Shown here piece by piece: positions 764-49,250 of a stretch of 64,000 bases of DNA. The stretch is taken from positions 108,631 through 172,630 of the forward strand of contig CAZFUL010000002.1 of the NCBI GenBank assembly GCA_964522435.1, given 5' to 3'. The translations under genes were made by a program, and so were the position numbers. The notes under the pieces are model-generated. The model saw only the letters and a program-made list of their open reading frames with translations, did not search any database and was not told the origin of the DNA. Source of the stretch: an uncultured Gammaproteobacteria bacterium (GTDB taxonomy: Bacteria > Patescibacteriota > Patescibacteriia > Magasanikbacterales > UBA922). How positions within the stretch are numbered: the first letter of the stretch is position 1; each line of letters opens with the position of its first letter.

Positions 764-764
764 G

Positions 765-2195: not shown

Positions 2196-2202
2196 TGCTT
2201 TT

Positions 2203-3315: not shown

Positions 3316-3323
3316 AGATATAT

Positions 3324-4082: not shown

Positions 4083-4100
4083 AAAAAAATTAATTATATG

Positions 4101-5096: not shown

Positions 5097-5098
5097 AG

Positions 5099-6178: not shown

Positions 6179-8024
6179 AATTTAATAATGACCAAATTAA
6201 CAAGCGGTTATTTTGTTTTTTTTCTATATGATCAGTGACAATTTTTTTCACATAATCGTGATTGATAAAAGCGCTTGATGCCGTATTTGCATCCAACAAC
6301 ATTTCTTTTACATAGGCAGCATTTTCGCCACGATACCAGCTTTCATCAGGAGAAGAAAATCCTTGTTTTTTTCTTTGCCGCAGTTCTTCTGGCATATATT
6401 GCTCCATCGCTTGGCGAAGAACATTTTTTCCATCAGTATATTCTTGATACACAAATTTTTTTCTTTCTATATTTTCGTCAATTCTTTTTATTTCTCTTGT
6501 AAGGTTTCCTAATTTATGGCGAACAGGAATTTTTTGTGCAAAGTTGACCAGATCATTATCGAGAAAAGGGAAGCGTTCTTCAAGTGCATGCGCCATAGAT
6601 AATTTATCTCCAACCAATAAAAGGCCAGGCAGAAATGTCTTTATTTCAAAATATAATGAATTTTGTATATAATCTTCTGGGCGCGTGTATTCTAATTTAG
6701 GATTAAATAAAAAGACTCGCTCAAATAGTTTTTTTGGTTCGTCTATGTTAATTTGAGCAAAAGTTGCTGGGGTAAATAATCGCTGCTTATCTTCATCCTT
6801 TACCAAGCGTTGCCAGTATGTATAATAGTGATCAAAAAATTCTTGTTTGCTTAATGAATCAAACACTTGATAATATCGCCAAGGGTATCCACCAAACAAC
6901 TCATCCCCGCCGGTGCCTTGTAAACATACTTTTACTACTTGTGACGCAAGGCGAGCAATATAATAATTGGGATATGACATTCCCATACGGATATCCTCAA
7001 TATGGGATACGACTGATGGAAGAGATCGTTTAATATCTCCTGCCACAATCACTTGTTCATGATGCGTGGTTCCAACATGCTCTGCCATAATCCGCGCAGC
7101 CTGTCGTTCATCAGAGTTCATTTCTTTTCCCGTAACCTGTGACATGTCAAAACCACAAGTAAAGGTATGCAGTTGTGGAATCGTGCGTGCAGCAATTGCC
7201 GTAATGGAACTAGAATCTAATCCTCCAGATAAATAAGAGCCAACGGGGACATCGGCCACGAGTTGTCGTCGTACGGCTTGTTCTAACAGTCGTGCGGTTT
7301 CTTCTTTCGCTTCTTGAAAGCTCATGTGTTCATCGGGCTGAGAAAAATCATAATCCCACCAAGATTGGTGAACAATGTGTGTTGTACTGGTGGTAATGGC
7401 TATGGTGTTCGCGGGGGGAAGCATTGATATCCCATCAAACAAGGTACGGTAGGTAAAAATATTTTGAAAGGTAAAATATTCGTTTAATGCGCCATAATTC
7501 ATTTTCATCCGATATGCGGGATGTTTGAGAATAGCTTTTATTTCTGACGCAAAAACGCAGAGTCCATCTTGAAACCAATAATATAAGGGTTTTATGCCAT
7601 AGCGATCACGACTTAAATACAGCTGTTGTGTGTGTTTATCCCAAGCAGCAATAGCAAACATGCCATTGTATTGTTCAAATACGCTTGGGCCAAATGCAGA
7701 TAAGCCTTCGACAATGACTTCGGTATCACAATCAGAAATAAAGGTATGACCGCGAGAAATAAGTTCTTGACGTAATTCTTTAAAATTATAAATACAGCCA
7801 TTAAATATGATGACCCAGCGACCATCTTTGGATGTCATGGGTTGTGCGCCTTTATCACTCGTATCTAAAATAGCCAGGCGATTATGCGCAAAACTGATAT
7901 GTGCTTCTTGGTATATACCGGTGCTATCTGGTCCACGATGAGCAATTGCTTCTGACATCTGTTTCAAAAGAGAAGCATCTGTTCCTATTGGTTGTTTTGT
8001 AAATACGCCAGCAATACCACACAT
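6147..8024 (-). CDS. asnB: asparagine synthetase (glutamine-hydrolysing)-like amidotransferase (WbpS-like)
   Basis: N-terminal 'MCGIAGV' with the class-II amidotransferase Cys2 and a PP-loop 'SGGLDSS'. 625 aa. Confidence 0.85.
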   Translation of the reverse strand: MCGIAGVFTKQPIGTDASLLKQMSEAIAHRGPDSTGIYQEAHISFAHNRLAILDTSDKGAQPMTSKDGRWVIIFNGCIYNFKELRQELISRGHTFISDCDTEVIVEGLSAFGPSVFEQYNGMFAIAAWDKHTQQLYLSRDRYGIKPLYYWFQDGLCVFASEIKAILKHPAYRMKMNYGALNEYFTFQNIFTYRTLFDGISMLPPANTIAITTSTTHIVHQSWWDYDFSQPDEHMSFQEAKEETARLLEQAVRRQLVADVPVGSYLSGGLDSSSITAIAARTIPQLHTFTCGFDMSQVTGKEMNSDERQAARIMAEHVGTTHHEQVIVAGDIKRSLPSVVSHIEDIRMGMSYPNYYIARLASQVVKVCLQGTGGDELFGGYPWRYYQVFDSLSKQEFFDHYYTYWQRLVKDEDKQRLFTPATFAQINIDEPKKLFERVFLFNPKLEYTRPEDYIQNSLYFEIKTFLPGLLLVGDKLSMAHALEERFPFLDNDLVNFAQKIPVRHKLGNLTREIKRIDENIERKKFVYQEYTDGKNVLRQAMEQYMPEELRQRKKQGFSSPDESWYRGENAAYVKEMLLDANTASSAFINHDYVKKIVTDHIEKKQNNRLLIWSLLNFESWCRIFFH

Positions 8025-10137: not shown

Positions 10138-11184
10138 TTATGTATCTAATAAAATAGGCAAACTCAACACGGTGTTACACAATTGTTCAGAAATAGGAAA
10201 GTCACCTGTTGTATACCCTAAATACGCAAAACAGGGCTGGGTATGTAAGGGTTCAGGATAATAGATCATCGTTGGTATGCCTTGTTCCTCAAATTTGTGT
10301 ATCAACGCATCGCGGTTGGGTACTTGTATGGTGTATTGATTATAACTATGCCCACTTGCCGCAGCAACAAAAGGAATCGTGATATCACTTTCTGAAGAAA
10401 ATTGTTCATCATATTTTTTTGCTTGTGCCTGTCGTGCTGCAATTTCCTTTGGTAGATAGGGAAGTTTTACTCGTAAGATTGCTGCTTGTATAGTATCTAA
10501 TCGAGAATTATGTCCTAACATTTCGTGGTGATATTTTTTTGTCTGTCCTTGTAATTTTAATAAGCGAATTTTTTCAGCAAGCGCTGCATCATTGGTGCTA
10601 ATAGCACCCCCATCACCATAGCAACCTAAATTTTTGGTTGGAAAAAAAGAGAAGGTATTAATATGACCAAATGTACCGCTTTGTTTGCCGTTCCAGGTTG
10701 CCCCAGTACTTTGCGCGCAGTCTTCAATAACAAAAAGATCATGTTCTTTTGCCAGTGTCATGACCTCGTCCATATTCGCCATTTGTCCAAATAAATGTAC
10801 GGGGATAATTGCTTTGGTTTTTGCTGTTATTTTTTTTCTTGCTTCTGCTACATCAAGAGTATATGTTTGTTGATCAACATCACAAAACACGGGTGTTGCG
10901 CCAAGGTGCGCAATAACATTTGCTGTTGCCACATAGGTAAAGGCAGGAACAATGACCTCATCGCCCTGAGTAATACCCAGTGCTTTTAATGCAAGAAAAA
11001 GCGCATCAGTCCCATTTGCACAACTGACAACATGCGGTATTCCCAGATAGTTCGCGAATTCTTGTTCAAATAATTCTACTTCTTCGCCCCCAATAAAAAC
11101 ACCTGCAGATAATACTCGTTGTACTGCGTCGAGAATTGCTTGTTTATAAGGTTTATTGTCTAGTGAGAGGTTTATGAAGTCCAT
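10138..11184 (-). CDS. DegT-family sugar aminotransferase (WbpE-like)
   Basis: 'TFSFFPTKNLGCYGDGGAISTN'. Confidence 0.8.
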   Translation of the reverse strand: MDFINLSLDNKPYKQAILDAVQRVLSAGVFIGGEEVELFEQEFANYLGIPHVVSCANGTDALFLALKALGITQGDEVIVPAFTYVATANVIAHLGATPVFCDVDQQTYTLDVAEARKKITAKTKAIIPVHLFGQMANMDEVMTLAKEHDLFVIEDCAQSTGATWNGKQSGTFGHINTFSFFPTKNLGCYGDGGAISTNDAALAEKIRLLKLQGQTKKYHHEMLGHNSRLDTIQAAILRVKLPYLPKEIAARQAQAKKYDEQFSSESDITIPFVAAASGHSYNQYTIQVPNRDALIHKFEEQGIPTMIYYPEPLHTQPCFAYLGYTTGDFPISEQLCNTVLSLPILLDT

Positions 11185-11253
11185 AGATTAAACGTGTATG
11201 TGGGGTGGTTATTAACCCCCTCCAGCCTCCCCCTTGATAAGGGGGAGAGTTAT

Positions 11254-11745
11254 TTATTTGATTATATTGCCTTCCTCATCTATTTTCCCTTGTACTTTTG
11301 CTGGATTTCCATAGACAAGGGTATAGGGGGGAACATCTTTGGTGACTACTGCGCCTGCGCCAATAAACGCATACTCACCAATGGTAACGCCAGCAACAAT
11401 GGTTGCATTTGCTCCAATGGTCGCTCCTTTTTTTACCAGTGTTTTTTTATAGATACCATGTTTGGGAAAAGCACTGCGGGGATTGCTATCATTGGTAAAG
11501 ACCACACTTGGGCCACAAAATACCTCATCTTCAAGTGTCACGCCTTTGTAGACAGAAACATTATTTTGAATTTTAACCATATTTCCAATGGTAACACCGT
11601 CCGCAACAAACACATTTTGTCCCAACACACAGCTGTGCCCGATTGTCGCGCCAGACATAATGTGAGAGAAATGCCAAATGCTGGTGTTATCGCCAATGCT
11701 GACGTTATCGTCGATAATAGAAGAGGGATGGATAGTGGGGGACAT
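11254..11745 (-). CDS. hexapeptide-repeat sugar N-acetyltransferase (WbpD/PglD-like)
   Basis: Left-handed beta-helix hexapeptide repeats (IGDN, IGHS, IGNM, IGAN, IGEY). 163 aa. Confidence 0.75.
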
Positions 11746-11748
11746 ACA

Positions 11749-12657
11749 TTATGTATTTGTTATTTGATTCACTAATGCAATCGCTGGCCGGGCGTCTGCA
11801 ATACGAAAGCCATTTCCTTTCAGTGTTTCTTCATAGACCTTGGTATGTAAATCAGTAAAGCCATCAGAAAATTCCATTTCTTCTCCATCAATGGTAATAG
11901 AACGGTAGGTACGTTGTCCTGTTTGTTGAATCTGTGTTGGTAGGTCATTGCTATCAATAGACAAAAACCAACTCACGGTCGCGTGTTCTAATTCAATAAC
12001 CCCACGCATGCGTTGTTGTTCTGAGAGCTGTACTTCTTGCTGTTGTACGCTACCAAATAACCACAGCATCATATCAAAAAAATGCACCCCAATGTTACTT
12101 GCTAATCCCCCAGATTTTTGGGGATTATTTTTCCAGGATTGTAAGTACCAATTTCCACGAGACGTGACATAGCGAATTTGTACCTGTTTTTTTGAGGCAG
12201 GCGATTGTTTTTTCCACGCCTCTATGTCTTGTTTTATTTTTTGTATCGCAGGATGTACCCGCAATTGTAAAATAGTATAGACCCGTTGTCCTGTTTCTTT
12301 TTCAATTTGTTCAAGGGCGTCTAAACTGTGGAGATCTAAGACAAGTGGTTTTTCACAAATGGCGTCTGCGCCTTGTTGTAGCGCCATGCGAATATGCGCG
12401 TCGTGCAAATAATTGGGTGAACAAATACTGACATAGTGTACGCGTTCAGTTTCACCACGGCGGCGTAAGATATCGAGGTGTTTGGCAAATTGTTCTGCTT
12501 CGGTAAAAAAAGCAGTATTGGGAAACGATTTATCTAAAAAACCCACAGAATCATGGGGATCAAGGGCGGCAACAAGGCGGTTTCCTGTTTGTTGCATGGC
12601 TTCTATATGCCGGGGAGCAATGTACCCAGCAGCGCCGATAAGAGCAAAATTTTTCAT
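11749..12657 (-). CDS. Gfo/Idh/MocA-family NAD-binding oxidoreductase (WbpB-like sugar 3-dehydrogenase)
   Basis: N-terminal Rossmann 'MKNFALIGAAGYIAPRHIEA'. It is first in the operon and followed by an acetyltransferase and an aminotransferase, matching WbpB-WbpD-WbpE logic. Confidence 0.7.
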   Translation of the reverse strand: MKNFALIGAAGYIAPRHIEAMQQTGNRLVAALDPHDSVGFLDKSFPNTAFFTEAEQFAKHLDILRRRGETERVHYVSICSPNYLHDAHIRMALQQGADAICEKPLVLDLHSLDALEQIEKETGQRVYTILQLRVHPAIQKIKQDIEAWKKQSPASKKQVQIRYVTSRGNWYLQSWKNNPQKSGGLASNIGVHFFDMMLWLFGSVQQQEVQLSEQQRMRGVIELEHATVSWFLSIDSNDLPTQIQQTGQRTYRSITIDGEEMEFSDGFTDLHTKVYEETLKGNGFRIADARPAIALVNQITNT

Positions 12658-12842
12658 AAAAAATAATAAAGAAAGGCATTCATGGAATTGCCTCTCTTAG
12701 TCTACCCCAAGCGATTCTCTTTTTCAAGCAAAAATAAAAAATCCCCCTATAGTCATCAAAAAAATATATTGATGAACATAGGGGGATGGGCGCGGGGCAA
12801 GGGTGACGAAGCCTTGCGCGCGCCGAATTGGTAATAAGGGGA

Positions 12843-15437
12843 TTAAGGCTGCAGGTGCAGCCCGCATCCCTCATGATCGTATGCGGACGGGGGGGATGCC
12901 GGGTTGAGGATATCTCGACCCCGGATCAGGTTGCCGCCGGAGTCGTAGTCGAACTCCTGCAGCAGGGTCACCTGACCGTTCCCATTCCGGATACGCAGGG
13001 TGGTGGGCAAGCGGTCGTTCACGTTGACATACGTGAACGTCCACTCAAATTCGGTCCGGCCCAGGTTGTCCTGGACCAGGATGCGGCGGAGGAGATTGGG
13101 GTTGCCCCCGTACTCCCACACCCAGGGGTTCGTGGGAACCCCTTCGCACTCGGTGTTGGCGTACTGGTTCCCACGGGTGGGTCGACCAGCGCCATCAAAG
13201 TTCGTGACCAGCACACAGGTGCCGGCCACAAAGTCGATACGGCGGCTCCAGTAGGTGCCGCCCTGCCCATCACTGACGGGCAGGAATTCTGCGACCACCT
13301 GGCCATTGACCAGGCTCCGACAGGCCATTGCCGGGGCGCGCACCGTCGATGCGGCACAGCCTTGGCACAGGCCCTCGCCGTTTTCGCCGCAGGCACCGCT
13401 GCCCGGCACCCCCAGGGCGCATTGGCCTTGGGGGGGCTGGCAGGGAGCGCCGACGTTGAAGTCTTCGTCGACGGTGCCGTCGCAGTCTTCGTCTTCGGCG
13501 TTGCAGAGCTCGGCCGGAGCCGGGCCGCATTCGCCGCAGGCGTTGACCAGGTTTTCGTCGACGGTGCCGTCGCAGTTGTCGTCGATGTTGTTGCACTGAG
13601 CCCCTTCGGGGCGGGGAGTCACCCCACCCACACAGGCGGCCCAGGCGCCGTTGACGCAGGTCTGCGTGCCTTCGCGGCACGCGCCAACATTGCTCCCGCA
13701 GTTGCGGGTGGTGTCGTTGGCGCAGGCACAGCCCTCATTGGCTGTGCCATCGCAGTCTTCGTCGAGACCTGCTTGGTCGCAGACCTCTTGGGGCACGGGG
13801 CCACAGGCGCCACAGGCGTTGAACACACCTTCGTCGATGTTGCCATTGCAGTTGTTGTCGATCCCGTCGCAGATTTCCGGCTGGGCAGGACCCGGCTGGC
13901 AATCTGCGACGAGTTGACCGTTTTGGCACACCATCTGACCAGCGCTCTCACACGCGCCGGTGCCGCACATCGTGGGACTTGCGGCGATCCCTTCGTCACT
14001 GCGGCCATCGCAGTCGTCATCTTCGTTGTTGCAGATCTCGGGGATGGGTTGCCCCGCACCCGAGCAGGCACCAAAGGTGCCATCCTCGAGACAGACCTGC
14101 ACCCCGGGGGTGCAGCGGCCGACATTCTCGCCGCAGGGGCGGCTTTCATCGGGGGTGCAGCCGCAGACCCCGTCGTCCACGCTGCCGTCACAGTCGTTGT
14201 CAAGGTCGTCGCAGACTTCCTCACCGGGGGCCCCGGCTTGGCAGGCTGCTTCGTAGGCGCCGTTGATACAGCGCCGGTTGACCTCACGTCGGCACTCGCC
14301 GACGCCACAGCTCTCCGGAATGGGAGCTGCGTTTTCGTCGCTGCGGCCATCGCAGTCGTCATCGATGTTGTTGCAGGTCGCATCAGCCGCGGCCGGTTGC
14401 CCAGCCTGGGCATTGCAGACCACGCCGTTGCCGCGGGGATCGCAGACGTTGATCCCGTTGGAGCGACAGGCGCCGACGCCGGCGTTGCAGGCCTGCCCCA
14501 GAGTGGGGAAGCTCTCGTCGATCGTGCCGTCGCAGTCATCATCCAGGCCATTGCAGGTTTCAGCCTGAACGCCCGGACTGACATTGGCGGTGCATTGCTC
14601 GCAGCCGGTCAAAACACCGGCGGCGCATATGCCAGGCAGGCTGCTGTCGCAGCCCGCCTCACCTTGGCCGGGGAACGACTCATCGCTGCGGCCGTCGCAG
14701 TCGTCGTCGAGGCTGTTGCAGGTCTCCTCCCCAGGCATGCCCGGGGTGCAGGAGCGGTTGGTGAAGCCACCTTCGCAGGTGACCGTCCCTTCCGCCCTGC
14801 AGATGCCTTCGCCGCAGAGGATTTCCTCCGGGACGAATTCATCAGGATCGCATTCGCAGTTCTCGTCGACGTCGCCGTCGCAGTCGTTGTCGCGCTCGTC
14901 GCAACCGTCGTCTTCCGACTCCGGCTCGCCAGGCGTACACTCGGGTACGCGCTGCCCATTCAGGCAGACTTGCCGTCCGTTGCGCTGGCAAACGCCTACC
15001 CCGCAGTTGCCTGCAGGAAATGGCTCAAGGTCTTCGTCGACGTTGCCATCGCAGTCGTTGTCTGCGTCATCGCAGCGCTCCGGAGCAGGTCGCTCGACCT
15101 GCTCACACACGAAGGCTCCATCCGCCAGGCAGCGGATGAGGCCAACGTGGCAGACCCCCAAGTTGGGGGTGGTGCAGGGCGCGTCGTGGACACAGGCGGG
15201 CGGCCCTTGGTCAGGGCTGCCATCGGGGCGCGGGGTCTCTGCGTCGGTTTGCGGCTCGCCCAGGTCGGGCGCCGCCCCGTCTTCTTCTACGCCGCTGTCG
15301 GAAGGAGGGGTGATCTGGGCGTCAGCAACGACGCCCGTGTCAGACCCGCCCTGAGGCGGGTCAGGAAAGTCTCCGGGGCAGCCCGTGAGGCTGCCGAGAA
15401 GCAGGGCCCAAAACAGGGCCGTCATGAGGTTCTTCAT
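12843..15437 (-). CDS. GC-rich secreted lipoprotein with about 11 DDDCDG-type cysteine-rich repeats, ending in a YD-repeat start (apparently truncated)
   Basis: ATG start with a signal peptide plus lipobox 'LLGSLTGC'. Repeats run 'CNxxDDDCDGxxDE'. The C-terminus reads '...TLLQEFDYDSGGNLIRG...' and stops exactly at the GC-content boundary. The opposite-strand 918-aa ORF is a GC shadow. Confidence 0.7.
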   Translation of the reverse strand: MKNLMTALFWALLLGSLTGCPGDFPDPPQGGSDTGVVADAQITPPSDSGVEEDGAAPDLGEPQTDAETPRPDGSPDQGPPACVHDAPCTTPNLGVCHVGLIRCLADGAFVCEQVERPAPERCDDADNDCDGNVDEDLEPFPAGNCGVGVCQRNGRQVCLNGQRVPECTPGEPESEDDGCDERDNDCDGDVDENCECDPDEFVPEEILCGEGICRAEGTVTCEGGFTNRSCTPGMPGEETCNSLDDDCDGRSDESFPGQGEAGCDSSLPGICAAGVLTGCEQCTANVSPGVQAETCNGLDDDCDGTIDESFPTLGQACNAGVGACRSNGINVCDPRGNGVVCNAQAGQPAAADATCNNIDDDCDGRSDENAAPIPESCGVGECRREVNRRCINGAYEAACQAGAPGEEVCDDLDNDCDGSVDDGVCGCTPDESRPCGENVGRCTPGVQVCLEDGTFGACSGAGQPIPEICNNEDDDCDGRSDEGIAASPTMCGTGACESAGQMVCQNGQLVADCQPGPAQPEICDGIDNNCNGNIDEGVFNACGACGPVPQEVCDQAGLDEDCDGTANEGCACANDTTRNCGSNVGACREGTQTCVNGAWAACVGGVTPRPEGAQCNNIDDNCDGTVDENLVNACGECGPAPAELCNAEDEDCDGTVDEDFNVGAPCQPPQGQCALGVPGSGACGENGEGLCQGCAASTVRAPAMACRSLVNGQVVAEFLPVSDGQGGTYWSRRIDFVAGTCVLVTNFDGAGRPTRGNQYANTECEGVPTNPWVWEYGGNPNLLRRILVQDNLGRTEFEWTFTYVNVNDRLPTTLRIRNGNGQVTLLQEFDYDSGGNLIRGRDILNPASPPSAYDHEGCGLHLQP

Positions 15438-15855
15438 GGTATGTCTCTCTTTCTCCTCGTATTCGACGAGGGTGTGTGTATGGGTTTGCGTTTACCAGGC
15501 GCTCACCCGGATTCTGTTGCAACAGGCAACAGAGAAAATATAGGGAATACCCTATGCTTTATCTGTTGCCTGTTATGTGTATAGGTATATCTCTTATTGT
15601 AGAGAGCAAGCGCTTCTTTGAGTATACTGTTTTTGTTATCGCAAAAACAGCTTTTTTGCCTAAAGAAAGCTCCTATTTATGCCATAAATAAGCGAATTTG
15701 TCAAGTGGTATAGGTACTCATGCTACAGGGAAAGTGCTTCTTTGTTCCTTCATATCGCCTGTCTGTATCCCTGTGTTTCAAGGGGGAATATATACGTTGC
15801 TCATTACGCAAAAATGCGTTACACTACCCATACTTATTTTTGATGTATATTGTGT

Positions 15856-16752
15856 ATGAACTACCTGGTTACTGGCGGTGCTGGATTTATTGGTTCTCAT
15901 ATTACAGACACCCTACTTGCTCAAGGCCATAAGGTGATTGTGGTCGATAATTTATTATTAGGAAAAAAAGAATTTGTTCAACCACAAGTCCAATTTGAAC
16001 AAGTCGATATTTGTGATTTTGATACCCTACGCTCTTTGATGAATGGGATTGATGGGGTGTTTCATGTTGCTGCAGATCCACGTTTACCTATTTCTATTGA
16101 AAATCCCCGTGCGACCCATGAGAGTAATGTAAACGGTACCCTCAACGTACTCGTTGCGGCAAAAGAAGCTGGCGTGAAAAAAGTGGTGTTTAGTTCAACC
16201 TGCGCGATGTATGAAGATAACCAGCCATTACCTTTGAACGAATTGTCCCGTGTGAATCCAGAAAGTCCCTATGGCTTGCATAAAAAAATAGGCGAGGATT
16301 ATTTGCGCCTCTTTGCAAAGTTGTATGGCTTGAAAACAATTTCTTTGCGCTATTTTAATGTCTATGGTCCAAGAAAAACTGCGGATGGCGGATACCCTAT
16401 GGTGATTCCTATTTTCTTAAAACAACGAGCACAAGGTGTCCCAATGACGATTGTTGGGGATGGAAAACAAACACGAGATTATGTCCATGTGCGTGACGTG
16501 GTACAAGCAAATATCTTAGCCATGAATAGTGACATAGGAGATGGTCGTGTCTTTAATATTGGATCTGGCAGACAAATAAGTGTAAACGAAATTGCCGAGA
16601 TGATTGGTGGAGAAAAAGTGTATTTGCCACAACGTCCCGGAGAAATGCGCTTTATTCAATGTGACGCCGCTGCGGCAAAAGCCGCTTTTGGTTGGGAATC
16701 GACCGTTGTCTTTGAAGAGGGGTTGGAAGAATTAAAAAATCAGGCATCTTAG
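15856..16752 (+). CDS. NAD-dependent epimerase/dehydratase (GalE-like)
   Basis: 'MNYLVTGGAGFIGSH' and YxxxK 'YGLHK'. Confidence 0.8.
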   Translation: MNYLVTGGAGFIGSHITDTLLAQGHKVIVVDNLLLGKKEFVQPQVQFEQVDICDFDTLRSLMNGIDGVFHVAADPRLPISIENPRATHESNVNGTLNVLVAAKEAGVKKVVFSSTCAMYEDNQPLPLNELSRVNPESPYGLHKKIGEDYLRLFAKLYGLKTISLRYFNVYGPRKTADGGYPMVIPIFLKQRAQGVPMTIVGDGKQTRDYVHVRDVVQANILAMNSDIGDGRVFNIGSGRQISVNEIAEMIGGEKVYLPQRPGEMRFIQCDAAAAKAAFGWESTVVFEEGLEELKNQAS

Positions 16753-17600
16753 CCTGATTTTTTTTGCCTCTGTTTCCCGCAGTGTAAGGTATTTAAGAGT
16801 AATCGTGCAACCGTTACTGGGCCCACACCACCAGGGGTTGGCGTAACGTATGCCGCAAGGGCAGCAACACTCTCTATATCTACATCGCCATACATGTTTC
16901 CGTTTTCATCATAATCAACCCCCGCGTCAATAATAATGGCGTCTTTTTTTACCATGCCTGCATTGATTAAGTGTTTTTTTCCTACACCACTAATAATAAT
17001 ATCTGCTTGTGTTGATATTTTTTCTGGATGATCTGTTGTGCTATCAATTACAAACACCCGTGCCCCTTGATGGCGGGCAATAAGTGCCATAGGTTTACCA
17101 ACGAGTACGCCATGACCAAAAATAGCAACGGTTTTATTTGTAAATGACATACCAAGAGCCTCTAAAATAGAGCAAATCGCTCCTGGTGTTGGGGGAAGTA
17201 AGCGCAAGTCACCCTGTGCTAATCGTTGCATCTGTATGTCAGTTAAACAATCAACATCACGGTCAGGGTCAATGGCATTGAGAATCTGTTGTGTATCAAT
17301 ATGCGCGGGAAGGGGGAGCTGTACAATAAGGCCAGAAGGCGCTTGTTGTTGAATGTTTGTTATCTCTTTGAGCAGCGCTTGCTGTGTAATGGTTTCAGGA
17401 AATTCGTATCGAGTAAAAACAATACCACATTCTTTTGCGGCTAATTCTTTTTGTTTTACATAACTGTGAGATGGTTTGTCGTTTCCCACTAATATAACCG
17501 CCAAAGAAACCACCATACCTTGAGCATGGAGTTCTTGCACTTGTTTGGCAATACTTGCGCGTAATTGTTGGGCAATGGCTTTGCCATCAATACGTATCAT
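16749..17600 (-). CDS. folD: bifunctional methylenetetrahydrofolate dehydrogenase/cyclohydrolase
   Basis: 'YVKQKELAAKECGI', 'GKPMALIARHQGARVFV' and 'PGGVGPVTVARLL'. The start is set at the ATG of MIRIDGK. Confidence 0.85.
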   Translation of the reverse strand: MIRIDGKAIAQQLRASIAKQVQELHAQGMVVSLAVILVGNDKPSHSYVKQKELAAKECGIVFTRYEFPETITQQALLKEITNIQQQAPSGLIVQLPLPAHIDTQQILNAIDPDRDVDCLTDIQMQRLAQGDLRLLPPTPGAICSILEALGMSFTNKTVAIFGHGVLVGKPMALIARHQGARVFVIDSTTDHPEKISTQADIIISGVGKKHLINAGMVKKDAIIIDAGVDYDENGNMYGDVDIESVAALAAYVTPTPGGVGPVTVARLLLNTLHCGKQRQKKSG

Positions 17601-17737
17601 AGTCGATATCATCATATCACAGTGTGGTCGAGGGTACCACGAAAAAAGAGAAAAATCAAGATGATCGGCAAAAGAATCAAAATATGTTACCATATAGATA
17701 CCTCATAACCTCGTAAACTAAGATACCATCGTAGCCT

Positions 17738-18772
17738 ATGAAATCCATATCCAATTATTTTGCCACTGCTGTCGAAATGAACGCATCGGATCTTCACTTA
17801 GTGGGGGGATCATTGCCTTATGTTCGTCAACAAGGAGAATTGATTGAATTAGATAAAAAGCCCTTGTCTTCTAAAGAATTAGAAACACAAATTTATTCGC
17901 TGTTAAGTACTGATCAAAAAAAACGTCTTATTGATGAACGGGAATTAGACATGGGCTATGAACAAAAAGGCTCTCGCTTTCGGGTGAACGTGCATTGGCA
18001 AGAAGAATCAATTGGGTTAGCGGCACGTCTCATTCCACAAACCATTCCATCAACAGAAGCCTTGCAGTTTGAAGAAGTATTACAAGAATTACCTCATTTG
18101 CTTGATGGCCTTGTGTTAGTGGTTGGGCCAACTGGGCACGGAAAATCAACCACGCTTGCCTCAATGATTGATCAAATTAATAAAACTCGCAAAGCCCATA
18201 TTGTGACGATTGAAGATCCCATTGAATTTTTATTTCAAGAAGATAAAAGTTTGATTGAACAACGAGAAGTGGGGAGTGATACGCAATCGTTTGCAAACGC
18301 GCTTAAGCATGTGTTGCGGCAAGATCCGGATGTTATTTTGGTAGGAGAAATGCGTGATCCAGAAACCATTGCTACAGTACTCACCGCGGCAGAAACCGGG
18401 CATTTGGTATTTTCTACCTTACATACTTCTTCTGCTGCGGAAGCCATTGAACGTATTGTCGATGTATTTGACGGCGCCAAGCAAAAGCAAGTATTAATTC
18501 AACTCTCTACGGTGTTGCGTGCGGTGGTTGCGCAACAATTACTTCCTGCGGTAGATGGCACACGGGTGGCTGCTCGCGAAGTATTGATTAATACCCCTGC
18601 GGTGGCGAACCTGATTCGAGAAAATAATGTCGCCCATATTCCGAGTGTGATTCAAACCAATGCCAAAGACGGCATGATTCCTATGGATACCTCGATAAAA
18701 AATTTGTTGAAACAAAATCTTATTAGTAAAGAAATTGCCGAAAAACGCATGGGACGACAACGAAAGATATGA
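17738..18772 (+). CDS. pilT: type IV pilus retraction ATPase PilT
   Basis: Walker A 'GPTGHGKSTT'. The overall PilT/PilU layout is present, ending 'ISKEIAEKRMG'. Confidence 0.85.
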   Translation: MKSISNYFATAVEMNASDLHLVGGSLPYVRQQGELIELDKKPLSSKELETQIYSLLSTDQKKRLIDERELDMGYEQKGSRFRVNVHWQEESIGLAARLIPQTIPSTEALQFEEVLQELPHLLDGLVLVVGPTGHGKSTTLASMIDQINKTRKAHIVTIEDPIEFLFQEDKSLIEQREVGSDTQSFANALKHVLRQDPDVILVGEMRDPETIATVLTAAETGHLVFSTLHTSSAAEAIERIVDVFDGAKQKQVLIQLSTVLRAVVAQQLLPAVDGTRVAAREVLINTPAVANLIRENNVAHIPSVIQTNAKDGMIPMDTSIKNLLKQNLISKEIAEKRMGRQRKI

Positions 18773-20541
18773 GTGACTTTGTCATAAAAAAATCAAGCAA
18801 TAAAGCAGGTACTGGTGACCGACGATTGCAGATCGCTGCTCTGTGTATTGCAGGGATCGCTGGTATTATTATGGTACGGCTTTTTTTTCTTATGGTCGTG
18901 AACCATTCCTTTTATGAACAACTAGCGGCAGGTGCCCATGATTTATATGCGCAATTATTTCCTAAAAGAGGGAGTGTATTTATTCAGGATACCAGAACCA
19001 AAGAAACGTTTCCTTTGGCTATGAATCGCGATGTATTTTTGTTATACGCAGATACGAGAAATATTACAACAGACGATGAAGCAGAAAAAATTGCCGAGAC
19101 GCTTGCGCCCCTTCTTGGCTATGATGATGAAAAAAAATTTGCATTGTTTACTGCGATAAATAAACGGACAGATCCCTACGAACCAATAGAGCCACAAATT
19201 GAAGAATCGGTAAAACAGCAGATTGAAGAAAAACAATTGCCTGGTATTCAGTTTGTTCGGCAGTCAAAACGCTTTTATCCAGAAGGACCCTTAGCTGCTT
19301 CTGTTATTGGATTTTTAGGAAAAAATGAAGAAGGAAAAGATATTGGTCGTTATGGTATTGAAGGGTATTGGAATGATACCCTTGCCGGTGTCCAAGGATA
19401 TGTCGCTGGATTGCGAGGAGCAGGGGGGAGTGTGATTACGTCTGCAGGAAGAGTATTTGAACCAGCGCAACATGGATCTGATGTATTGTTAACGCTTGAT
19501 AGGACCTTGCAATACCGTGCCTGTGAAATATTGCGCGAACGTATGACAGAGTATGGAGCCGATAGTGCCTCGCTTATTATGATGAATCCGCACAGCGGGG
19601 CGATTATTGCGATGTGCAGCTTGCCAGATTTTGATCCCAATATCTATTCTCAGGTGGATGATGCTGCGGTGTACAACAATGCGAGTATATTTACTCCATA
19701 TGAACCAGGATCTATTATGAAGCCCTTAGTGATGGCGGCAGCGATTAATGAAGAACTCGTGACCCCAAATAGTGTTTTTTTTGACAGTGGGTTTAAAGAA
19801 GGGTTGTGTCAAAAACCAATTCGTAATGCGAACAACAAATCATACGGTGATCAAACCATGACCGGTGTATTAGAAAATTCTATCAACACCGGGATGATTT
19901 ATATTGCTGAGTTACTAGGTAAACAACGGGAGATTGCGTATTTAGAACGCTTTGGGTTGGGCGTAAAAGAGGGAATAGAGTTGGATAAAGAGAGCAGTGG
20001 CACCCTTGAAAGTTTATCATTAAATAGTGGAGATAAGATTGATTGTTATGCCGCAACCGCGTCGTTTGGTCAGGGAATTACGGCAACACCGTTGCAAATG
20101 GTAACGGCCTTTTCTGCGATTGCAAATGGTGGGCTCTTAATGAAACCGTATATTGTGGAAGAAATTCGTCATAGTGATGGACGTGTAGAAAAAATAAAAC
20201 CAACACAAATTCGCCGCGTGATATCTGAACGCGCTGCAGGACTCGTGGGAGCAATGATGGTAAGCGTGATAGAAAAAGGGCAAACAAAAAGTGCGGTAAT
20301 TCCGGGCTATCATGTGGCGGGAAAAACAGGAACTGCGCAAATTGCTGAAAAAGGAATATATGTTGATGCCACCAATCATTCCTTTGTTGGATTTGTTCCG
20401 GTAGAGGATCCCGCGTTTGTGATGATTGTTACCTTTGAAAAACCAGATCGTGGATTTGCTGACTCAACCAGTGGTCCCACGTTTCAAAAAATTGCATCGT
20501 TTGCCTTGCAGTATTATGGGATAGCACCCAGAGGACAGTAA
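18769..20541 (+). CDS. penicillin-binding protein transpeptidase (PBP2/FtsI class B)
   Basis: N-terminal TM helix and motifs SxxK 'SIMKP', SxN 'SIN' and KTG 'AGKTGTAQ'. The start overlaps the pilT stop in an ATGA arrangement. Confidence 0.85.
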   Translation: MSDFVIKKSSNKAGTGDRRLQIAALCIAGIAGIIMVRLFFLMVVNHSFYEQLAAGAHDLYAQLFPKRGSVFIQDTRTKETFPLAMNRDVFLLYADTRNITTDDEAEKIAETLAPLLGYDDEKKFALFTAINKRTDPYEPIEPQIEESVKQQIEEKQLPGIQFVRQSKRFYPEGPLAASVIGFLGKNEEGKDIGRYGIEGYWNDTLAGVQGYVAGLRGAGGSVITSAGRVFEPAQHGSDVLLTLDRTLQYRACEILRERMTEYGADSASLIMMNPHSGAIIAMCSLPDFDPNIYSQVDDAAVYNNASIFTPYEPGSIMKPLVMAAAINEELVTPNSVFFDSGFKEGLCQKPIRNANNKSYGDQTMTGVLENSINTGMIYIAELLGKQREIAYLERFGLGVKEGIELDKESSGTLESLSLNSGDKIDCYAATASFGQGITATPLQMVTAFSAIANGGLLMKPYIVEEIRHSDGRVEKIKPTQIRRVISERAAGLVGAMMVSVIEKGQTKSAVIPGYHVAGKTGTAQIAEKGIYVDATNHSFVGFVPVEDPAFVMIVTFEKPDRGFADSTSGPTFQKIASFALQYYGIAPRGQ

Positions 20542-20585
20542 ATAAAAAAGCAATGAGTTGTTCATTGCTTGTCCTAAAATTTCGC

Positions 20586-20659
20586 GTAACAAGGGGGAGA
20601 TTCGAACTCCCGACCTGAGGGTTATGAATCCTCCGCTCTTACCAACTGAGCTACCCTGT
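20586..20659 (-). tRNA. tRNA-Met (anticodon CAT; an elongator or lysidine-Ile2 type cannot be excluded)
   Basis: Hand-folded. Acceptor GACAGGG/CCUUGUU includes two G-U pairs. D-arm is GCUC-AGUUGGUAA-GAGC, the anticodon loop is UUCAUAA, and the T-arm is GGGAG-UUCGAAU-CUCCC. No CCA is encoded. Confidence 0.7.
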
Positions 20660-20860
20660 CGTCGCCCCTAAAGGGAATTTTTGTTTCCTAGCCAGTATAC
20701 GGTATAAAAAGAAATATTTCAAGAGTCTACTATTGTTCTCCTGAACATCATCCGTATCTACGAATAAGGTATTTGGAGTGGGAAGTGCATAAATGCCCTT
20801 CCCATACCGGCAGGTGAGCCACCGCGTCAATCGCGTTGGTTGCACACTGTTTTGTGGTTG

Positions 20861-21775
20861 TTACTTCTTCACGGCGAGGAAGTAGGTGTTGGAGTCCCAC
20901 TTCTCGGGCTCTTTCTCCGAGAATGAGAAGCTCCGCCATTCGTCAAGGCTCAGGGAAGCGAAGTAGATTGTTTCGCGTCCACTGTATGTTTTAATGGCGT
21001 AGTGCCAGCCAATGGTCACGATCGGACCTTTGGCAAACATCCCTTTGCTTGCCTCGGCAAAGGAGAGAATTTCTCCCAGTAGGGCCGGTTGCAGGCCTCG
21101 CTTGGCCAATTCGTAGGACACTCCTTCGCTCGTCATCGGTTGATCGAATTTGATGATTTGGAAGGTTACATTACGGTAACCGTCGATCATCGGGAATTGG
21201 ATCTCGTCGACGGTGCCCCGTACACCCCAGGGGAACACCGTAACGTTGTCGAGTTCGGCCAGCGCGAGCATTTCCCGCAAGGTCAATCCCAGGTCAAACT
21301 TTACGTCGAAGGTATCTCCGGGCTTGATCTCGCGATAGCCTGCAGGCATGAAGCGCCAGGGATCGAAGGAGATACGCGAACCCTGGGAACATCCCAGGGT
21401 GACCTGCCAGCGGTTGATGGGGTCAGCCTTTCGTGAAAGCAGCATGTAGCTGCATTTGCACTTGCAGCGCATGGGAGTGTTGTCGTCCTCGACGTCAGTC
21501 AGGGTGCGGAGCTCCCAATCCCCGCCGCCGTTGGCGTTGAAGTGGCGCGCGATGGCCTGAAGGCGCAGGTTTTCATCTTGATCCGGCTCCGTCGCGGCGT
21601 TGGCCGCGTTCACTCGCTGCTTCACTTCTTCGGGCAGCGCGTCGAACATCTGCGCACGCCAGGAGCGTTGCGTGTCGGCCTGGCTTTCGTGCCAGGGCTT
21701 GATCGTGGGGCGGGCTGCTGTGCAGGCCGCCAAAAACCAGCTGATGATCAGCAGAGAAAGGTTTTTGAATTTCAT
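20861..21775 (-). CDS. GC-rich lipoprotein of unknown function
   Basis: ATG start, signal peptide and lipobox 'FLAACT'. 304 aa with much higher GC than its neighbours. It lies between two tRNA genes. Confidence 0.6.
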   Translation of the reverse strand: MKFKNLSLLIISWFLAACTAARPTIKPWHESQADTQRSWRAQMFDALPEEVKQRVNAANAATEPDQDENLRLQAIARHFNANGGGDWELRTLTDVEDDNTPMRCKCKCSYMLLSRKADPINRWQVTLGCSQGSRISFDPWRFMPAGYREIKPGDTFDVKFDLGLTLREMLALAELDNVTVFPWGVRGTVDEIQFPMIDGYRNVTFQIIKFDQPMTSEGVSYELAKRGLQPALLGEILSFAEASKGMFAKGPIVTIGWHYAIKTYSGRETIYFASLSLDEWRSFSFSEKEPEKWDSNTYFLAVKK

Positions 21776-21956
21776 CGAGATATCCTTTCCTCAGGTGTTG
21801 TTTCGCCCATCATATTTCACACTATGTGGCTTGGGCGCGTAGCATGTTGTTTACCAAACATTGATACACAATATGCTCTGCGTCAATTGGTTTACGAGGA
21901 AGAATAAGGCATAGAGTATATATACAAAAAAAGAGGTTTTGTCAACCTCTTTATTG

Positions 21957-22028
21957 TAGCCCCAAGGGGAATTGAACCCCTGTTACCTGGATGAGAACCG
22001 GGCGTCCTAGCCACTAGACGATGAGGCC
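21957..22028 (-). tRNA. tRNA-Glu (anticodon CTC)
   Basis: Hand-folded. Acceptor is GGCCUCA/UGGGGCU, D-arm GUCU-AGUGGCUA-GGAC, anticodon loop UUCUCAU, T-arm AGGGG-UUCAAUU-CCCCU. It resembles the E. coli tRNA-Glu architecture. Confidence 0.65.
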
Positions 22029-22043
22029 ATTGCCTAGCACCCA

Positions 22044-22403
22044 TTACACGTCCATGGTTGCGTCAGTCGTATCAACCGTTGTTGGTTCTTCTTGTAAAAG
22101 CATTTGTTTAGAAGAAAACGGTTTTTTTCCTTTTAAAGCATCTTTTAATGCTTTGCCTGCTTTAAATTTTGGTACGGTTACTGGGGGAATTTGAATTTTT
22201 TCTTGTGGATTTTGTGGATTTACCCCAATACGTCCTGCGCGAGTTTTGGCACTAAATTGTCCAAATCCGGCAATATTTACTGAATCTTTTTTAAGAAGTG
22301 TTTCAACCACAACCTCAACAAAGGCATGCACCATTTCTTCCGCTTCTTTTTTCGACATGCCAGCACGATCGGCAATTGCTTGTGCAAGGGCTGCTTTATT
22401 CAT
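22044..22403 (-). CDS. hup: HU/IHF-family nucleoid protein with Lys/Ala-rich C-terminal tail
   Basis: 'MNKAALAQAIADRAGMSKKEAEEMVHAFV...GFGQFSAKTRAGRIGVNPQNPQEKIQIP' is canonical HU, followed by a roughly 30-aa extension 'KFKAGKALKDALKGKK...'. Confidence 0.85.
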   Translation of the reverse strand: MNKAALAQAIADRAGMSKKEAEEMVHAFVEVVVETLLKKDSVNIAGFGQFSAKTRAGRIGVNPQNPQEKIQIPPVTVPKFKAGKALKDALKGKKPFSSKQMLLQEEPTTVDTTDATMDV

Positions 22404-22589
22404 AGTACGGATATGGGGATAAATATATATAACGCAGTTATTATAACGAAAGAGTTTTTTTATGTCAATGGAGCGCAATTATTCCCTCTATGTGATCTTG
22501 ACAAAATAGAAAAAGGTTTGTAGGCTGAAGTGCTTCTTTCCCATGGTGGGAGAGAAGGTGTGGTACTCAAACATGACTGGAGAAATGTC

Positions 22590-23573
22590 ATGAAGAAGAT
22601 TCTTTTGTTGTTGCTCCTCGCTGGGTTGGGCGTCCTCGTATGGAAAAACCATACCCCCAAGAACACGTTGGGAGGGGACGCGCCGCCGGTAGTGACGGTC
22701 GCACAGAAGATGACTGAGCTGCTCACTGCCTACGAGGCGCTCCATCCCCAGCCGGATCATTTCTGGTTGACGGGTGGAGATCAGCTGATGTTGATCGGTG
22801 CTCCCGCGTACAACAAGCTCCTCCAGACTTGGAAGGCGGACGCCATCGCGGGTTTGCGTCGCAACATGGAGGCGCACCCGCTCATGCACGACCTCATGAG
22901 CGAGTTTCCTGACTTCCGGATCACTGAGGTGGTTCGGCAGGGAAATAGCTACGGGTCCCGGGCGGTGTTCCCTGGAAAGATTGAGGGGAATATCGAACAG
23001 TTCATGCAAGAGCAAGGGAAGTTCCTCGAAGTCGCCCTCATCCCAGAGCAAAACTGGGATCACTCGGCGTTTCCCTCTTGCTTGTACTACAACAAGGGAT
23101 GGGGAGCCGTGATGGTGGTTGGCGTGGACATCCCTGCAACGTTTGGCACGGCGCTGTTGGCTCATGAACTTGGGCATGCGTTGCGTCATCGCCAAGGTGC
23201 CGGGTCTGCAACCGCTCACCCGAGCACGGATCTCTTCATCGGCGAAGAGGTGGAGATGCATGTTCTTGAACATGAGGTGTTGAACTTCGCGGTTCAGGGC
23301 AAGTTCAATCAGCTCTTGGATCGCATCATCGCCCGCGCGGCCAACAAGCAAGACATGAACCAGGTGATCAAGTCTGTCACTGCAGAAGACCTCAAGGCCT
23401 ACGACCAGCTCTTCGGGCTTGAGTCTGCTGGCAAAGAGATTGCCTCACTTGCCCTTGGGCAGTTCCTGTTGTCCTTGGGCTTCCGCATGATTGACGGCTA
23501 CATCACAGAGCCGCAAGCCGCACATGCAGAGAAGATTCGCTTCTATCGTTGGATCAGCAATCCGGCGAAGTAG
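22590..23573 (+). CDS. GC-rich exported protein with HExxH zinc-metallopeptidase-like motif
   Basis: Start at 'MKKILLLLLLAGLGVLVW' (signal peptide or anchor). It carries 'ALLAHELGHALRH'. The high-GC antisense ORF 22488..23351 is a shadow. Confidence 0.45.
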   Translation: MKKILLLLLLAGLGVLVWKNHTPKNTLGGDAPPVVTVAQKMTELLTAYEALHPQPDHFWLTGGDQLMLIGAPAYNKLLQTWKADAIAGLRRNMEAHPLMHDLMSEFPDFRITEVVRQGNSYGSRAVFPGKIEGNIEQFMQEQGKFLEVALIPEQNWDHSAFPSCLYYNKGWGAVMVVGVDIPATFGTALLAHELGHALRHRQGAGSATAHPSTDLFIGEEVEMHVLEHEVLNFAVQGKFNQLLDRIIARAANKQDMNQVIKSVTAEDLKAYDQLFGLESAGKEIASLALGQFLLSLGFRMIDGYITEPQAAHAEKIRFYRWISNPAK

Positions 23574-23644
23574 CTTCTTTCTCATGTGCTTCTGTCGCGC
23601 AGGGTAACAACACCATGGTTGCCCTGCCGACTTCCTTCCATATA

Positions 23645-23682
23645 TAAAAAAACAAGGTGTATCACCTTGTTTTCTTTTTTAT
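23645..23682. terminator. bidirectional rho-independent terminator between the HExxH gene and rny
   Basis: Hairpin 'acaaggtg-ta-tcaccttgt' is flanked by an A-run on one side and a T-run on the other. Confidence 0.6.
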
Positions 23683-38622: not shown

Positions 38623-39067
38623 TGAAGGTCGGCCAACCCACTATGTGTGGGTTGGCCGTACCTATTGCTCCTTGTCAGTCCTCCACCTGATACTGGCTCG
38701 GGGGGTTGGTGCGCACCTCAACTGATGCGGCAATCGACGCGTCTTGCGACGCTTTGATCCGTTGCCGTTCAGTGGGCTTTCCTCGTTGGCTGCTCCAATG
38801 GTACAAAAAGGCCAACACTGCCAATACGAGACACAAAGCACCAAAAGATTCCACGGCGGCTTCCTTACCTGTCCTCTGTCAGGGGTAATACGCATCAAGG
38901 CCAACTCCCTTTGGCCAGGGCATAAAAAAAGAGGACAACCGAGGCTAGCAGGTTTGCTGGATTTTGTCAATACGGAAGGGCAGACAGCTTTTTTGTTCCT
39001 GTATGCCTCAATCGAATGAATCCGTTTTGGCCTTTTCTTATCGCATGGTTTCTGCTATACTCGCTCT

Positions 39068-43807: not shown

Positions 43808-43837
43808 TTTGCTGAGTTGTCTAAATTTTTTTACCCC

Positions 43838-43947: not shown

Positions 43948-43978
43948 ATACTAAATGTAGAAAATTATTTTAAAAAAT

Positions 43979-44012: not shown

Positions 44013-44054
44013 TCCTCCTTTCTTTTTTCTCCTTGGTTTGGGGTGATTGTCGCG

Positions 44055-44222: not shown

Positions 44223-44236
44223 CGTTCTTCTCCTTG

Positions 44237-48659: not shown

Positions 48660-49250
48660 GATACAATGATGCGTGGCCTATTTGTTCCTACCGCAGAGCA
48701 GTACTTCCAACTTCTGATGGTGGGACTGTGGTATCAGATTCCTCTGCAGGTCGGAGAAAACGGCCTGATCACCACGTTTGATTTCCGAAGCACGAGCACC
48801 TGTCATCATGTTATGCTGGGAATCTTGCAGGTTCTCGGATATGACATTGATGCGGCAAAACGACTGATCAAAAAAGCGAGCAAGGATAGGACCCTCCATG
48901 CGCAGCTTCGCCGCTACGCCGTGGCGTTTGATGCGAACGGAAGTCGAGAAGAACAGATTAATCAAATCCAAACAACACCTGCGTCGTTGTTGCACAAAAC
49001 AGCACTCACCGAGGACACAAACTGGGTCAAGGTGTTGTTGGATACAAAATTGTTCATTACCGTGGCAGGGGCAAAGCGTGCTGCTCAGTTTGAGGGGCGA
49101 TTTACTGGCCTTACCTATGAAAAGTATTATCGGGTAAAAGAAGAGCACGCTGCACGGGTTGCGGCTATGTCAGAAGCCGCTCGATCTGCAATGATGCTTC
49201 AACACCGCCGAAGCATGTCGGCATTCGCTGATGATCATTCTTCTGACTGA
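48660..49250 (+). CDS. hypothetical protein in GC-elevated cassette
   Basis: 194 aa with higher GC than its neighbours. It has its own promoter and two downstream hairpins, and no recognisable motif. Confidence 0.45.
   Translation, partial: DTMMRGLFVPTAEQYFQLLMVGLWYQIPLQVGENGLITTFDFRSTSTCHHVMLGILQVLGYDIDAAKRLIKKASKDRTLHAQLRRYAVAFDANGSREEQINQIQTTPASLLHKTALTEDTNWVKVLLDTKLFITVAGAKRAAQFEGRFTGLTYEKYYRVKEEHAARVAAMSEAARSAMMLQHRRSMSAFADDHSSD

Follow-up and report, generated by a model that had tools for sequence, protein, structure and literature searches.

Patescibacteria, also referred to as the candidate phyla radiation (CPR), are bacteria with tiny genomes that are thought to live attached to other cells, so that their surface proteins form the interface by which host range is decided. 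We analysed a stretch of 64,000 nucleotides of contig CAZFUL010000002.1, hereafter the window, in which a series of short GC-rich islets lies between housekeeping genes. The host is a Candidatus Magasanikbacteria (Patescibacteria/CPR) and the DNA is chromosomal, with a G+C content (GC) of about 41%. By the gene for penicillin-binding protein 2 (PBP2), the nearest genomes are Candidatus Magasanikbacteria/Magasanikiibacteriota metagenome-assembled genomes (MAGs), at 54-62% identity. The closest genome, PBBY01000006 (locus L001), has identities of 76% for RNase Y, 78% for HU and 62% for PBP. There are at least six islets, A to F, which are compositionally foreign, compact and placed between intact native genes. 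Each islet measures 0.3-2.7 kb. Together they make up about 10% of the window and they are spread over 36 kb of it. The remaining open reading frames (ORFs) are sugar-modification, cell-wall, translation and replication genes.

The GC profile was computed in 200-bp windows, with a window median of 0.405 and a robust standard deviation (sd) of 0.052, and long runs above +2 sd were picked. These runs correspond to positions 12701-15550 (GC 0.64, maximum z 6.1), 20901-21850 (0.56), 22551-23650 (0.55), 38601-38950 (0.53) and 44001-44700 (0.54), with no further long ones in the window. The limits of the islets were set by maximum-likelihood segmentation of GC, inside versus outside. Islet A, on the minus strand, spans 12781-15421 (GC 0.660 inside versus 0.408 outside). 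The core of islet B, also on the minus strand, spans 20795-21731 (0.582 versus 0.429), the core of islet C, on the plus strand, 22613-23639 (0.571 versus 0.379), and islet D, on the minus strand, 44040-44695 (0.549 versus 0.419). The GC steps at the islet borders are 0.13-0.25 and the edges are sharp. At islet E, only three marginal 200-bp windows, all inside 48751-49250, lie over the threshold and the segmentation chose an AT-rich spacer instead; the bulk GC shift of E is weak. A preliminary description of this DNA had reported five dispersed GC-rich islands, A to E. Their elevated GC is borne out by the computed values, which are not uniform and amount to 0.55-0.66 in A-D against about 0.41 in the window. 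As for their number, E is only marginally GC-rich, yet a codon outlier, and the sixth islet, F, had been missed.

The coding sequences reveal the same islets. GC at third codon positions (GC3) is 0.77 in A, 0.73 in B, 0.72 in C, 0.5-0.65 in the ORFs of D and 0.51 in E, compared with 0.23-0.42 in native genes. Synonymous codon usage was expressed as likelihood z-scores, with 47 native genes as the reference. The z-score is -5.8 for A, -6.7 for B, -6.6 for C, -5.0 to -5.7 for the three ORFs of D, -4.0 for E and -4.6 for F, and the lowest value among native genes is about -2.1. Checked islet by islet against these native genes, codon usage thus agrees with the claim of foreign composition, all ORFs of the islets lying 4.0-6.7 sd under the mean of the native genes. 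In the islet ORFs, GC3 is higher than GC at first positions (GC1), which is in turn higher than GC at second positions (GC2). The islets are therefore real reading frames from a GC-richer background and not GC-rich non-coding DNA.

Islet A contains gene A (12843..15437, minus strand), which encodes an 864-residue lipoprotein with a signal peptide and the lipobox LTGC. It is flanked by genes for a GFO/IDH/MocA oxidoreductase and an epimerase (galE). The 5' untranslated region and the ribosome-binding site reach to about 15500, on the minus strand, and a 100-bp GC profile was used for this islet beside the segmentation. The protein has 79 cysteines and about 11 CDG-type MopE/PF11617 repeats, of repeat families D1/D2. 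It matches the Pfam family PF11617 at 2.4e-36, with 124 bits against a cut-off of 27, in 6 stretches, and is thereby MopE-related. Its 4447 homologues are at best 35-39% identical, and the similarity stems from the repeats. Among the homologues with a name, most are from Myxococcota and some from Patescibacteria, including Uhrbacteria. The C-terminal domain, of about 165 residues, has no match among the 120 matches listed. The repeats are rich in Cys, Gly, Asp and Pro, and this lifts GC1 and GC2. Hairpins were scored by RNA folding energy with a z-score. Directly 3' of gene A, within the foreign segment, there is a GC-rich hairpin without a U tract (12789..12824, minus strand; -19.8 kcal/mol, z -4.6). 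An AT-rich terminator of native type, with a U tract (12741..12787, minus strand; inverted repeat I7; -26.2 kcal/mol, z -6.4), abuts the left edge of the islet. The AT-rich region upstream of gene A has a 25-nt inverted repeat at 15521-15574, 88% complementary with a 4-nt loop, which could be an operator or a terminator. The product of gene A is absent from a collection of 15 billion proteins, in which the products of B, C, E and RNase Y of the same 185,058-bp NCBI contig are present; the source record may lack an annotation of gene A or flag it as a pseudogene.

Islet B contains gene B (20861..21775, minus strand), which encodes a 304-residue lipoprotein (MKFKNLSLLIISWFLAAC). It lies between two native tRNA genes identified with ARAGORN and Rfam, tRNA-Met (CAT) on the left (20586..20660, minus strand) and tRNA-Glu (CTC) on the right (21956..22028, minus strand). 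The spacer that holds the islet (20661..21955, minus strand) measures 1295 bp. In the closest genome the same two tRNA genes are only 4 bp apart, so that islet B sits inside a former tRNA pair. Two hairpins lie downstream of gene B (20775..20849, minus strand; -31.8 kcal/mol, z -2.9). A word search of 5.8 billion proteins returned the self-match alone, and no family was found in Pfam, PHROGs, NCBIfam or PADLOC, nor any phage or plasmid relative. A single-sequence AlphaFold (AF2) model was unusable, with a predicted local distance difference test score (pLDDT) of 36.

Islet C contains gene C (22590..23573, plus strand), which encodes a protein of 327 residues with an N-terminal signal or anchor and the motifs HELGH...EEVEMHE. 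The islet sits exactly between the hup promoter and the terminator shared on the hup/rny side. Downstream of the gene there is a GC-rich hairpin without a U tract (23594..23631, plus strand; -23.5 kcal/mol, z -5.0), and an AT-rich, bidirectional native terminator (23649..23673; terminator scan, fold z -4.5) abuts the right edge of the islet at the end of rny. A word-indexed search saw only the protein itself. An exhaustive HMMER search gave 304 representative relatives, of which the best are 39-40% identical. In this family, which has no Pfam or NCBIfam model, residues H192, E193 and H196 are at least 90% conserved and E219, E220 and H224 are invariant or nearly so, the HExxH motif and the third zinc ligand being present across the family. 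The AF2 model of the gene C product is confident (pLDDT 93) and has no match in the PDB by Foldseek. Judged from its sequence, gene C looks like the gene of a distant, uncharacterised zincin-like exported protein, a putative metallopeptidase. Family C is a candidate for a new zincin-like family, found mostly in CPR-like contigs.

Nine independent DNA contexts of family C were compared, which had been picked as the best matches to the islet copy and carry this ascertainment bias. In six of them (the window, L129, L130, L132, L137 and L138) the gene is strongly GC-richer than its flanks, with a gene GC of 0.53-0.59 and a GC3 of 0.64-0.81 against 0.34-0.41 in the flanks. It is moderately GC-richer in L133, and it is not GC-richer in L131, where its GC is near-native, or in L136, where it is native-like. 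The locus is different in each of the nine contexts, and none of the nine is a uniformly GC-rich, donor-like contig. The islet copies in L130 (10001-11014), L132 (6001-6987), L129 (436-1527), L137 (314-1432) and L138 (1463-2290) are 31-40% identical to gene C. They are single-gene islets in low-GC, CPR-like contigs from independent samples. Family C is absent from 1.5 Mb of loci related to the window. Its recurrence could reflect a diverse, undersampled clade of GC-rich donors together with the biased sampling. An amino-acid proxy (GARP/FYMINK) for the GC of further family-C genes was tried and gave no discrimination. In L137, a second GC-rich gene for a secreted protein (1744-2550) adjoins the C homologue.

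Islet D comprises three tandem ORFs of 55-77 residues on the minus strand, D1 (44055-44222), D2 (44237-44419) and D3 (44436-44669). All three have a ribosome-binding site of the AAGGAG type, and the products share a CxxC...LCxxH motif. Islet D is a three-ORF mini-operon of paralogues. The islets had been described as single-gene cassettes, which does not apply to D with its three small paralogous ORFs and is correct for the others, which have one gene each. The gene of islet E (48666..49250, plus strand) has a GC of 0.50 and encodes a protein of 194 residues, without a signal peptide or a family, which forms a singleton protein cluster. A hairpin follows it at about 49275-49311 (plus strand; z -2.1). 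Islet F (38630..38950, minus strand; GC 0.53), which is new here, includes an ORF for a hydrophobic peptide of 59 residues (38675-38854, minus strand). Its GC-rich hairpin (38626-38663, minus strand; -30.5 kcal/mol, z -7.5) is very stable and lacks a U tract. Islets D, E and F are less GC-shifted than A-C and may be older or from other sources.

The junction between mreB and GT4, where islet D is located (43808-44807 in the window), is a recurrent insertion hotspot among relatives. In the closest clade it is occupied by ribBA-ribD, with or without a HAD hydrolase gene, at native GC. Elsewhere, it is occupied by unrelated cargo in L060, L061/L062, L073 and L084, and the list of hotspot loci also includes L050, L052, L053, L057 and L058. 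The cargo of L073 consists of zinc-ribbon ORFs and a lipoprotein gene. In L070, the junction holds a single gene for a secreted protein (11106-11978), with a GC of 0.67 and a GC3 of 0.90 in a genome of GC 0.54. Right after the mreB stop codon of the window, and before the mreB terminator hairpin, there is an imperfect palindrome of about 110 nt (43836-43945; -59.8 kcal/mol, z -4.9). No Rfam family matches it, it occurs as a single copy in the window and none of the fetched loci contains it. This additional sequence at the insertion site of D may be a structured RNA or a palindromic element.

When the 3' ends of the islets are compared, stable GC-rich hairpins without a U tract are found just 3' of A, C and F, and the hairpins that follow B and E are weaker. 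A and C each have, further on, a separate AT-rich, native-looking hairpin with a U tract. The hairpins that had been taken for the islets' own terminators are thus present; those of A, C and F have no U tract and those of B and E are comparatively weak. Among essentially all ORFs of the window, Pfam scans detected neither an integrase, a transposase or a recombinase nor a reverse transcriptase. No islet is flanked by a direct repeat of at least 14 nt or by inverted repeats. For the 64-kb window, this upholds the earlier remark that integrases, transposases and direct repeats are not evident. The edges of the six islets share no motif, nor do those of family-C islets from different genomes, and matches there were at chance level only, as were terminal inverted repeats and target duplications. 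A scan for paired attC cores (RYYYAAC...GTTRRRY) gave 0 pairs downstream of the six islets, with no dedicated attC covariance model being run.

Searches for related mobile elements were equally negative. The genes of B-F have no matches in PHROGs, PADLOC, Pfam or NCBIfam. A tblastn search of INPHARED gave none for B and C, and in IMG/VR neither B, C and E nor the motifs of family C had any. No plasmid or viral-contig relatives were found for the islet genes searched, and a DNA search of the islets against all fetched loci returned repeat-motif matches only. The homologue searches for B, D, E and F were less sensitive than the exhaustive HMMER search used for C. Two readings were rejected: integron cassettes (no IntI in the window, no attC cores, no tandem array) and defence systems (the defining parts are absent). 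Prophage remnants or phage morons are not indicated by the searches of PHROGs, INPHARED or IMG/VR, which gave no matches.

Relatives of the window were compared at each insertion site. Apart from the flanks of A, the genes next to the islets encode PBP transpeptidase, HU, RNase Y, MreB, GT4, RRF and D-Tyr-tRNA deacylase. These are the flanks named in the preliminary description, and their synteny is conserved in relatives. The placement of the islets between intact native genes stands. The closest genome retains the order galE-folD-pilT-pbp-tRNAs-hup-rny and genes beyond. In it, the hup-rny spacer is 127 bp and holds the promoter and the terminator only, the site of C being empty. For islets D, E and F, 80 metagenomic relatives were fetched via MreB, of which 56 loci were informative for the mreB-GT4 spacing. 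The spacing is below 200 bp, and the site thus empty, in about 40 of these 56. The site of E is empty in L053 and L060, where frr and dtd are 56-62 bp apart, and that of F in L057, with a spacer of 151 bp. Genes B, D, E and F have no homologues in the 1.5 Mb of related loci.

The site of islet A is different. The closest genome has two different genes upstream of galE, in an arrangement unlike that of the window. About 5 kb upstream of its galE there is a gene (L001 1-4134, minus strand) for an A-like MopE lipoprotein of more than 1350 residues, which is 38% identical to A. This gene has a GC of 0.47 in a genome of 0.38, and a GC3 of 0.41 where the background is 0.23-0.28. The gene may have been acquired earlier and have ameliorated in part, or it may be the positional counterpart of A. 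MopE-like genes are GC-rich outliers in L076 too, and milder ones in L001. Empty insertion points are therefore found for B, C, D, E and F, but for A the comparison meets a different arrangement. In the relatives, none of the islet genes turned up at the locus that it has in the window. At the left end of the window, positions 1-6500 are AT-richer (GC 0.30-0.36) and contain genes for polysaccharides and sugar modification, which encode a flippase, a formyltransferase, a DegT aminotransferase and FemAB/GNAT-like proteins. This part may be a compositionally distinct surface-glycan cluster.

Composition also bears on the donors. Among A, B and C, the synonymous codon fractions correlate at 0.72-0.89. 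The gap in bulk GC between A (0.66) and B/C (0.57) is due to amino-acid composition, that is to GC1 and GC2, while GC3 is nearly equal. The argument that differing GC points to several donors is therefore weak, as A-C have near-identical codon usage as well. One donor or several similar GC-rich donors both fit A-C, and only D, E and F differ from them in composition. Codon usage was set aside as a guide to the donor, the islets correlating about equally (r 0.8-0.9) with any GC-rich locus, whether from CPR or Chloroflexota. The donors were probably GC-rich organisms. For C, Patescibacteria of higher GC are the most economical guess. For A, Myxococcota-like or CPR donors are possible.

Genes of shifted composition were also found outside the window. 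We scanned 89 related loci (1.53 Mb) for ORFs whose GC3 differs by more than 0.25 from the median of the locus, and obtained 18 outliers of high and 8 of low GC3. Eight of ten GC-rich outlier genes of the relatives have no Pfam family. The reverse case, AT-rich genes (GC 0.39-0.44) in GC-rich CPR loci (0.56), is seen in L107 (4086-6887) and L108 (12331-13104). Shifts in both directions are what ordinary horizontal gene transfer (HGT) among organisms of differing GC predicts. The window is dense in such genes, with three strong outliers compared with about one strong GC3 outlier per 110 kb in related loci, the loci fetched with gene C being set aside.

Taken together, the six islets are likely to be horizontally acquired DNA, the most economical mechanism being an intake of free DNA with illegitimate recombination and trimming afterwards. 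Each islet would be a foreign, GC-richer fragment with one gene, or three in D, and its own GC-rich 3' hairpin. Such a fragment would represent one donor transcription unit, composed of a 5' leader, the ORF or ORFs and the hairpin, set between an AT-rich promoter region that looks native and a native terminator. In this position, no resident gene is damaged. The DNA may have entered by free-DNA uptake through a type IV pilus/competence system, and the window encodes a PilT-like (PilT-type) ATPase. Integration may have occurred by illegitimate or microhomology recombination. Selection for a compact genome would then tolerate only those inserts that leave promoters and terminators intact, and flanks without a function would be trimmed away down to a minimal unit. 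By prediction, four of the six islets encode envelope or exported proteins (A, B, C and F, the last a small membrane peptide). This suggests that the islets were kept because they alter the cell surface of a probably contact-dependent organism.

Several points weigh against this explanation. No donor was identified, since the best matches of A and C are 35-40% identical and B and E are without homologues. The site of A was not shown to be empty in the closest genome, which has the A-like gene of intermediate GC nearby. The relatives compared are distant, with protein identities of 62-90%, so that the time of insertion is poorly bounded. The nearest relatives of C are GC-rich islets in other low-GC contigs and not genes of GC-rich genomes, which a simple donor-to-recipient picture does not predict. 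Finally, the step of uptake and illegitimate recombination is inference only.

The behaviour of family C gives some room to another explanation, which we consider rather unlikely. The islets could be a class of mobile cassettes, and not random debris of HGT, drawn from a pool of GC-rich genes in circulation among low-GC CPR genomes, by a route not yet recognised. Such genes could spread by the capture of whole monocistronic transcripts through reverse transcription, by an insertion directed by hairpins or terminators, or by a continuing flow from one GC-rich host lineage. Family C fits such a pool in being strongly GC-rich in six of nine contexts and moderately so in one more, always at another locus, with no donor-like GC-rich context and with islet copies as the nearest relatives of the copy in the window. 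However, these nine contexts are few and were selected as the best matches to an islet copy, and the family has a native-like GC in L136 and a near-native GC in L131. The MopE-like outliers, present in L076 and milder in L001, and the lack of a Pfam family in eight of ten GC-rich outlier genes of relatives agree with a circulating pool, whereas the AT-rich islets of GC-rich CPR loci are what generic HGT predicts. Each islet does resemble one transcription unit that ends in a hairpin and abuts a native terminator, but selection in compact genomes alone accounts for inserts beside terminators. The islets share no end motifs, and the window has no reverse transcriptase or recombinase.

It is very unlikely that the islets were moved in trans by a known site-specific or transpositional system, such as an integron integrase, a tRNA-targeting tyrosine integrase, an insertion sequence or miniature inverted-repeat transposable element (IS/MITE) or phage transduction, with the gene of the enzyme outside the window. 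The window, in which no integrase or transposase is found, covers 64 kb of a 185-kb contig. Islet B is located directly 3' of tRNA-Glu, which is a classic target of integrases, but the 3' end of the tRNA is not duplicated at the far border and there is no direct repeat of at least 14 nt at the islets. The 3' hairpin of each islet is superficially attC-like, yet no RYYYAAC...GTTRRRY core pair lies 3' of any islet gene. The mreB/GT4 junction is a recurrent hotspot in relatives, but terminal inverted repeats and common edge sequences are lacking, as are viral or plasmid relatives.

An artefact of metagenome assembly or binning, in which GC-rich reads of another organism were stitched into a CPR contig, can be given hardly any weight. 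The record is of metagenome type, all proteins of the contig are singletons in the collection and the product of gene A is missing there while its neighbours are present. However, all six inserts have native, syntenic DNA on both sides, and they contain complete ORFs with ribosome-binding sites, exactly intergenic and without any truncated gene. There are no repeats at the junctions that could mislead an assembler, and islets like these, in the same protein family, exist in independent assemblies made from different samples with different pipelines, from ENA (L129), Logan (L130, L132 and L137) and JGI (L070). Least probable of all is the vertical inheritance of native genes in which selection, for example on amino-acid composition or on mRNA structure or stability, maintains the high GC: the repeats of A do raise GC1 and GC2 and the A-like gene of the closest genome, in a similar neighbourhood, is GC-richer than its genome (0.47 versus 0.38; GC3 0.41 versus 0.26), but the shift is largest at synonymous third positions, the sites of B, C, D, E and F are empty in relatives, family C is at a different locus in every genome, and B, D, E and F have no homologues in the 1.5 Mb of related loci.

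As acquired DNA, the islets are a compact and well-delimited example of innovation by DNA uptake, in which acquired genes, most of them for exported proteins, account for about 10% of 64 kb of core genome. The recurrence of family C and the mreB/GT4 hotspot are testable, and could lead to the identification of donors or hosts or to a new insertion mechanism. Circulating cassettes, if real, would mean a new insertion route, for example transcript-derived or terminator-directed, with family C as its first traceable member. If there were a flow from one GC-rich host lineage, the composition and the families of the islets could help to trace the hosts on which Magasanikbacteria live. For now, the finding is chiefly a confirmation and illustration of a process already known.

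Several known systems resemble parts of the window. Gene A is like the MopE-related, or 'putative metal-binding motif', PF11617 proteins that are abundant in Myxococcota, as it has at least 6 significant repeats and a lipoprotein signal. It differs in being only 35-39% identical to them, in its unmatched C-terminal segment of about 165 residues and in being encoded in a CPR genome, although MopE-related genes are also found in other CPR genomes (L001, L076 and Uhrbacteria). For gene C, the nearest known systems are the zincin (HExxH) peptidases, for example deuterolysin (M35) and the light chains of clostridial neurotoxins (M27). Like integron cassettes, the islets are compact and mostly single-ORF units, each with an imperfect hairpin, and their cargo is varied and of unknown function. 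Unlike these cassettes, they are dispersed, their hairpins share no sequence, their ORFs are preceded by promoter-like AT-rich sequences, and the window has neither IntI nor attC cores. Islet B is like the tRNA-associated islands of tyrosine integrases in its position directly 3' of a tRNA gene and in its foreign composition. It differs from them in size, with about 1 kb and one gene between two tRNA genes, and in having no integrase, duplicated tRNA 3' end or att repeat.

The closest likeness is within the phylum itself. In MAGs of Patescibacteria, hundreds of genomic islands and individually transferred genes have been described, mostly exchanged within the phylum, and pili/competence have been put forward as the transfer route (PMC12455944, mSystems 2025). 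The islets of the window had been regarded as its main unexplained structure, and this holds only for their vector, since the acquisition of islands and single genes is already documented in Patescibacteria. As in those MAGs, they are of atypical composition and absent from relatives, they occupy about 10% of the sequence here compared with up to 13% there, and their transfer without obvious mobility genes matches. The window differs in being denser, with six islets in 64 kb, of which three strong ones lie within 11 kb. Furthermore, its islets are all shifted to higher GC, most of their products have no family and one family recurs as a GC-rich islet. In our best reading, the islets of the window belong to this known phenomenon of horizontally acquired islets in Patescibacteria.

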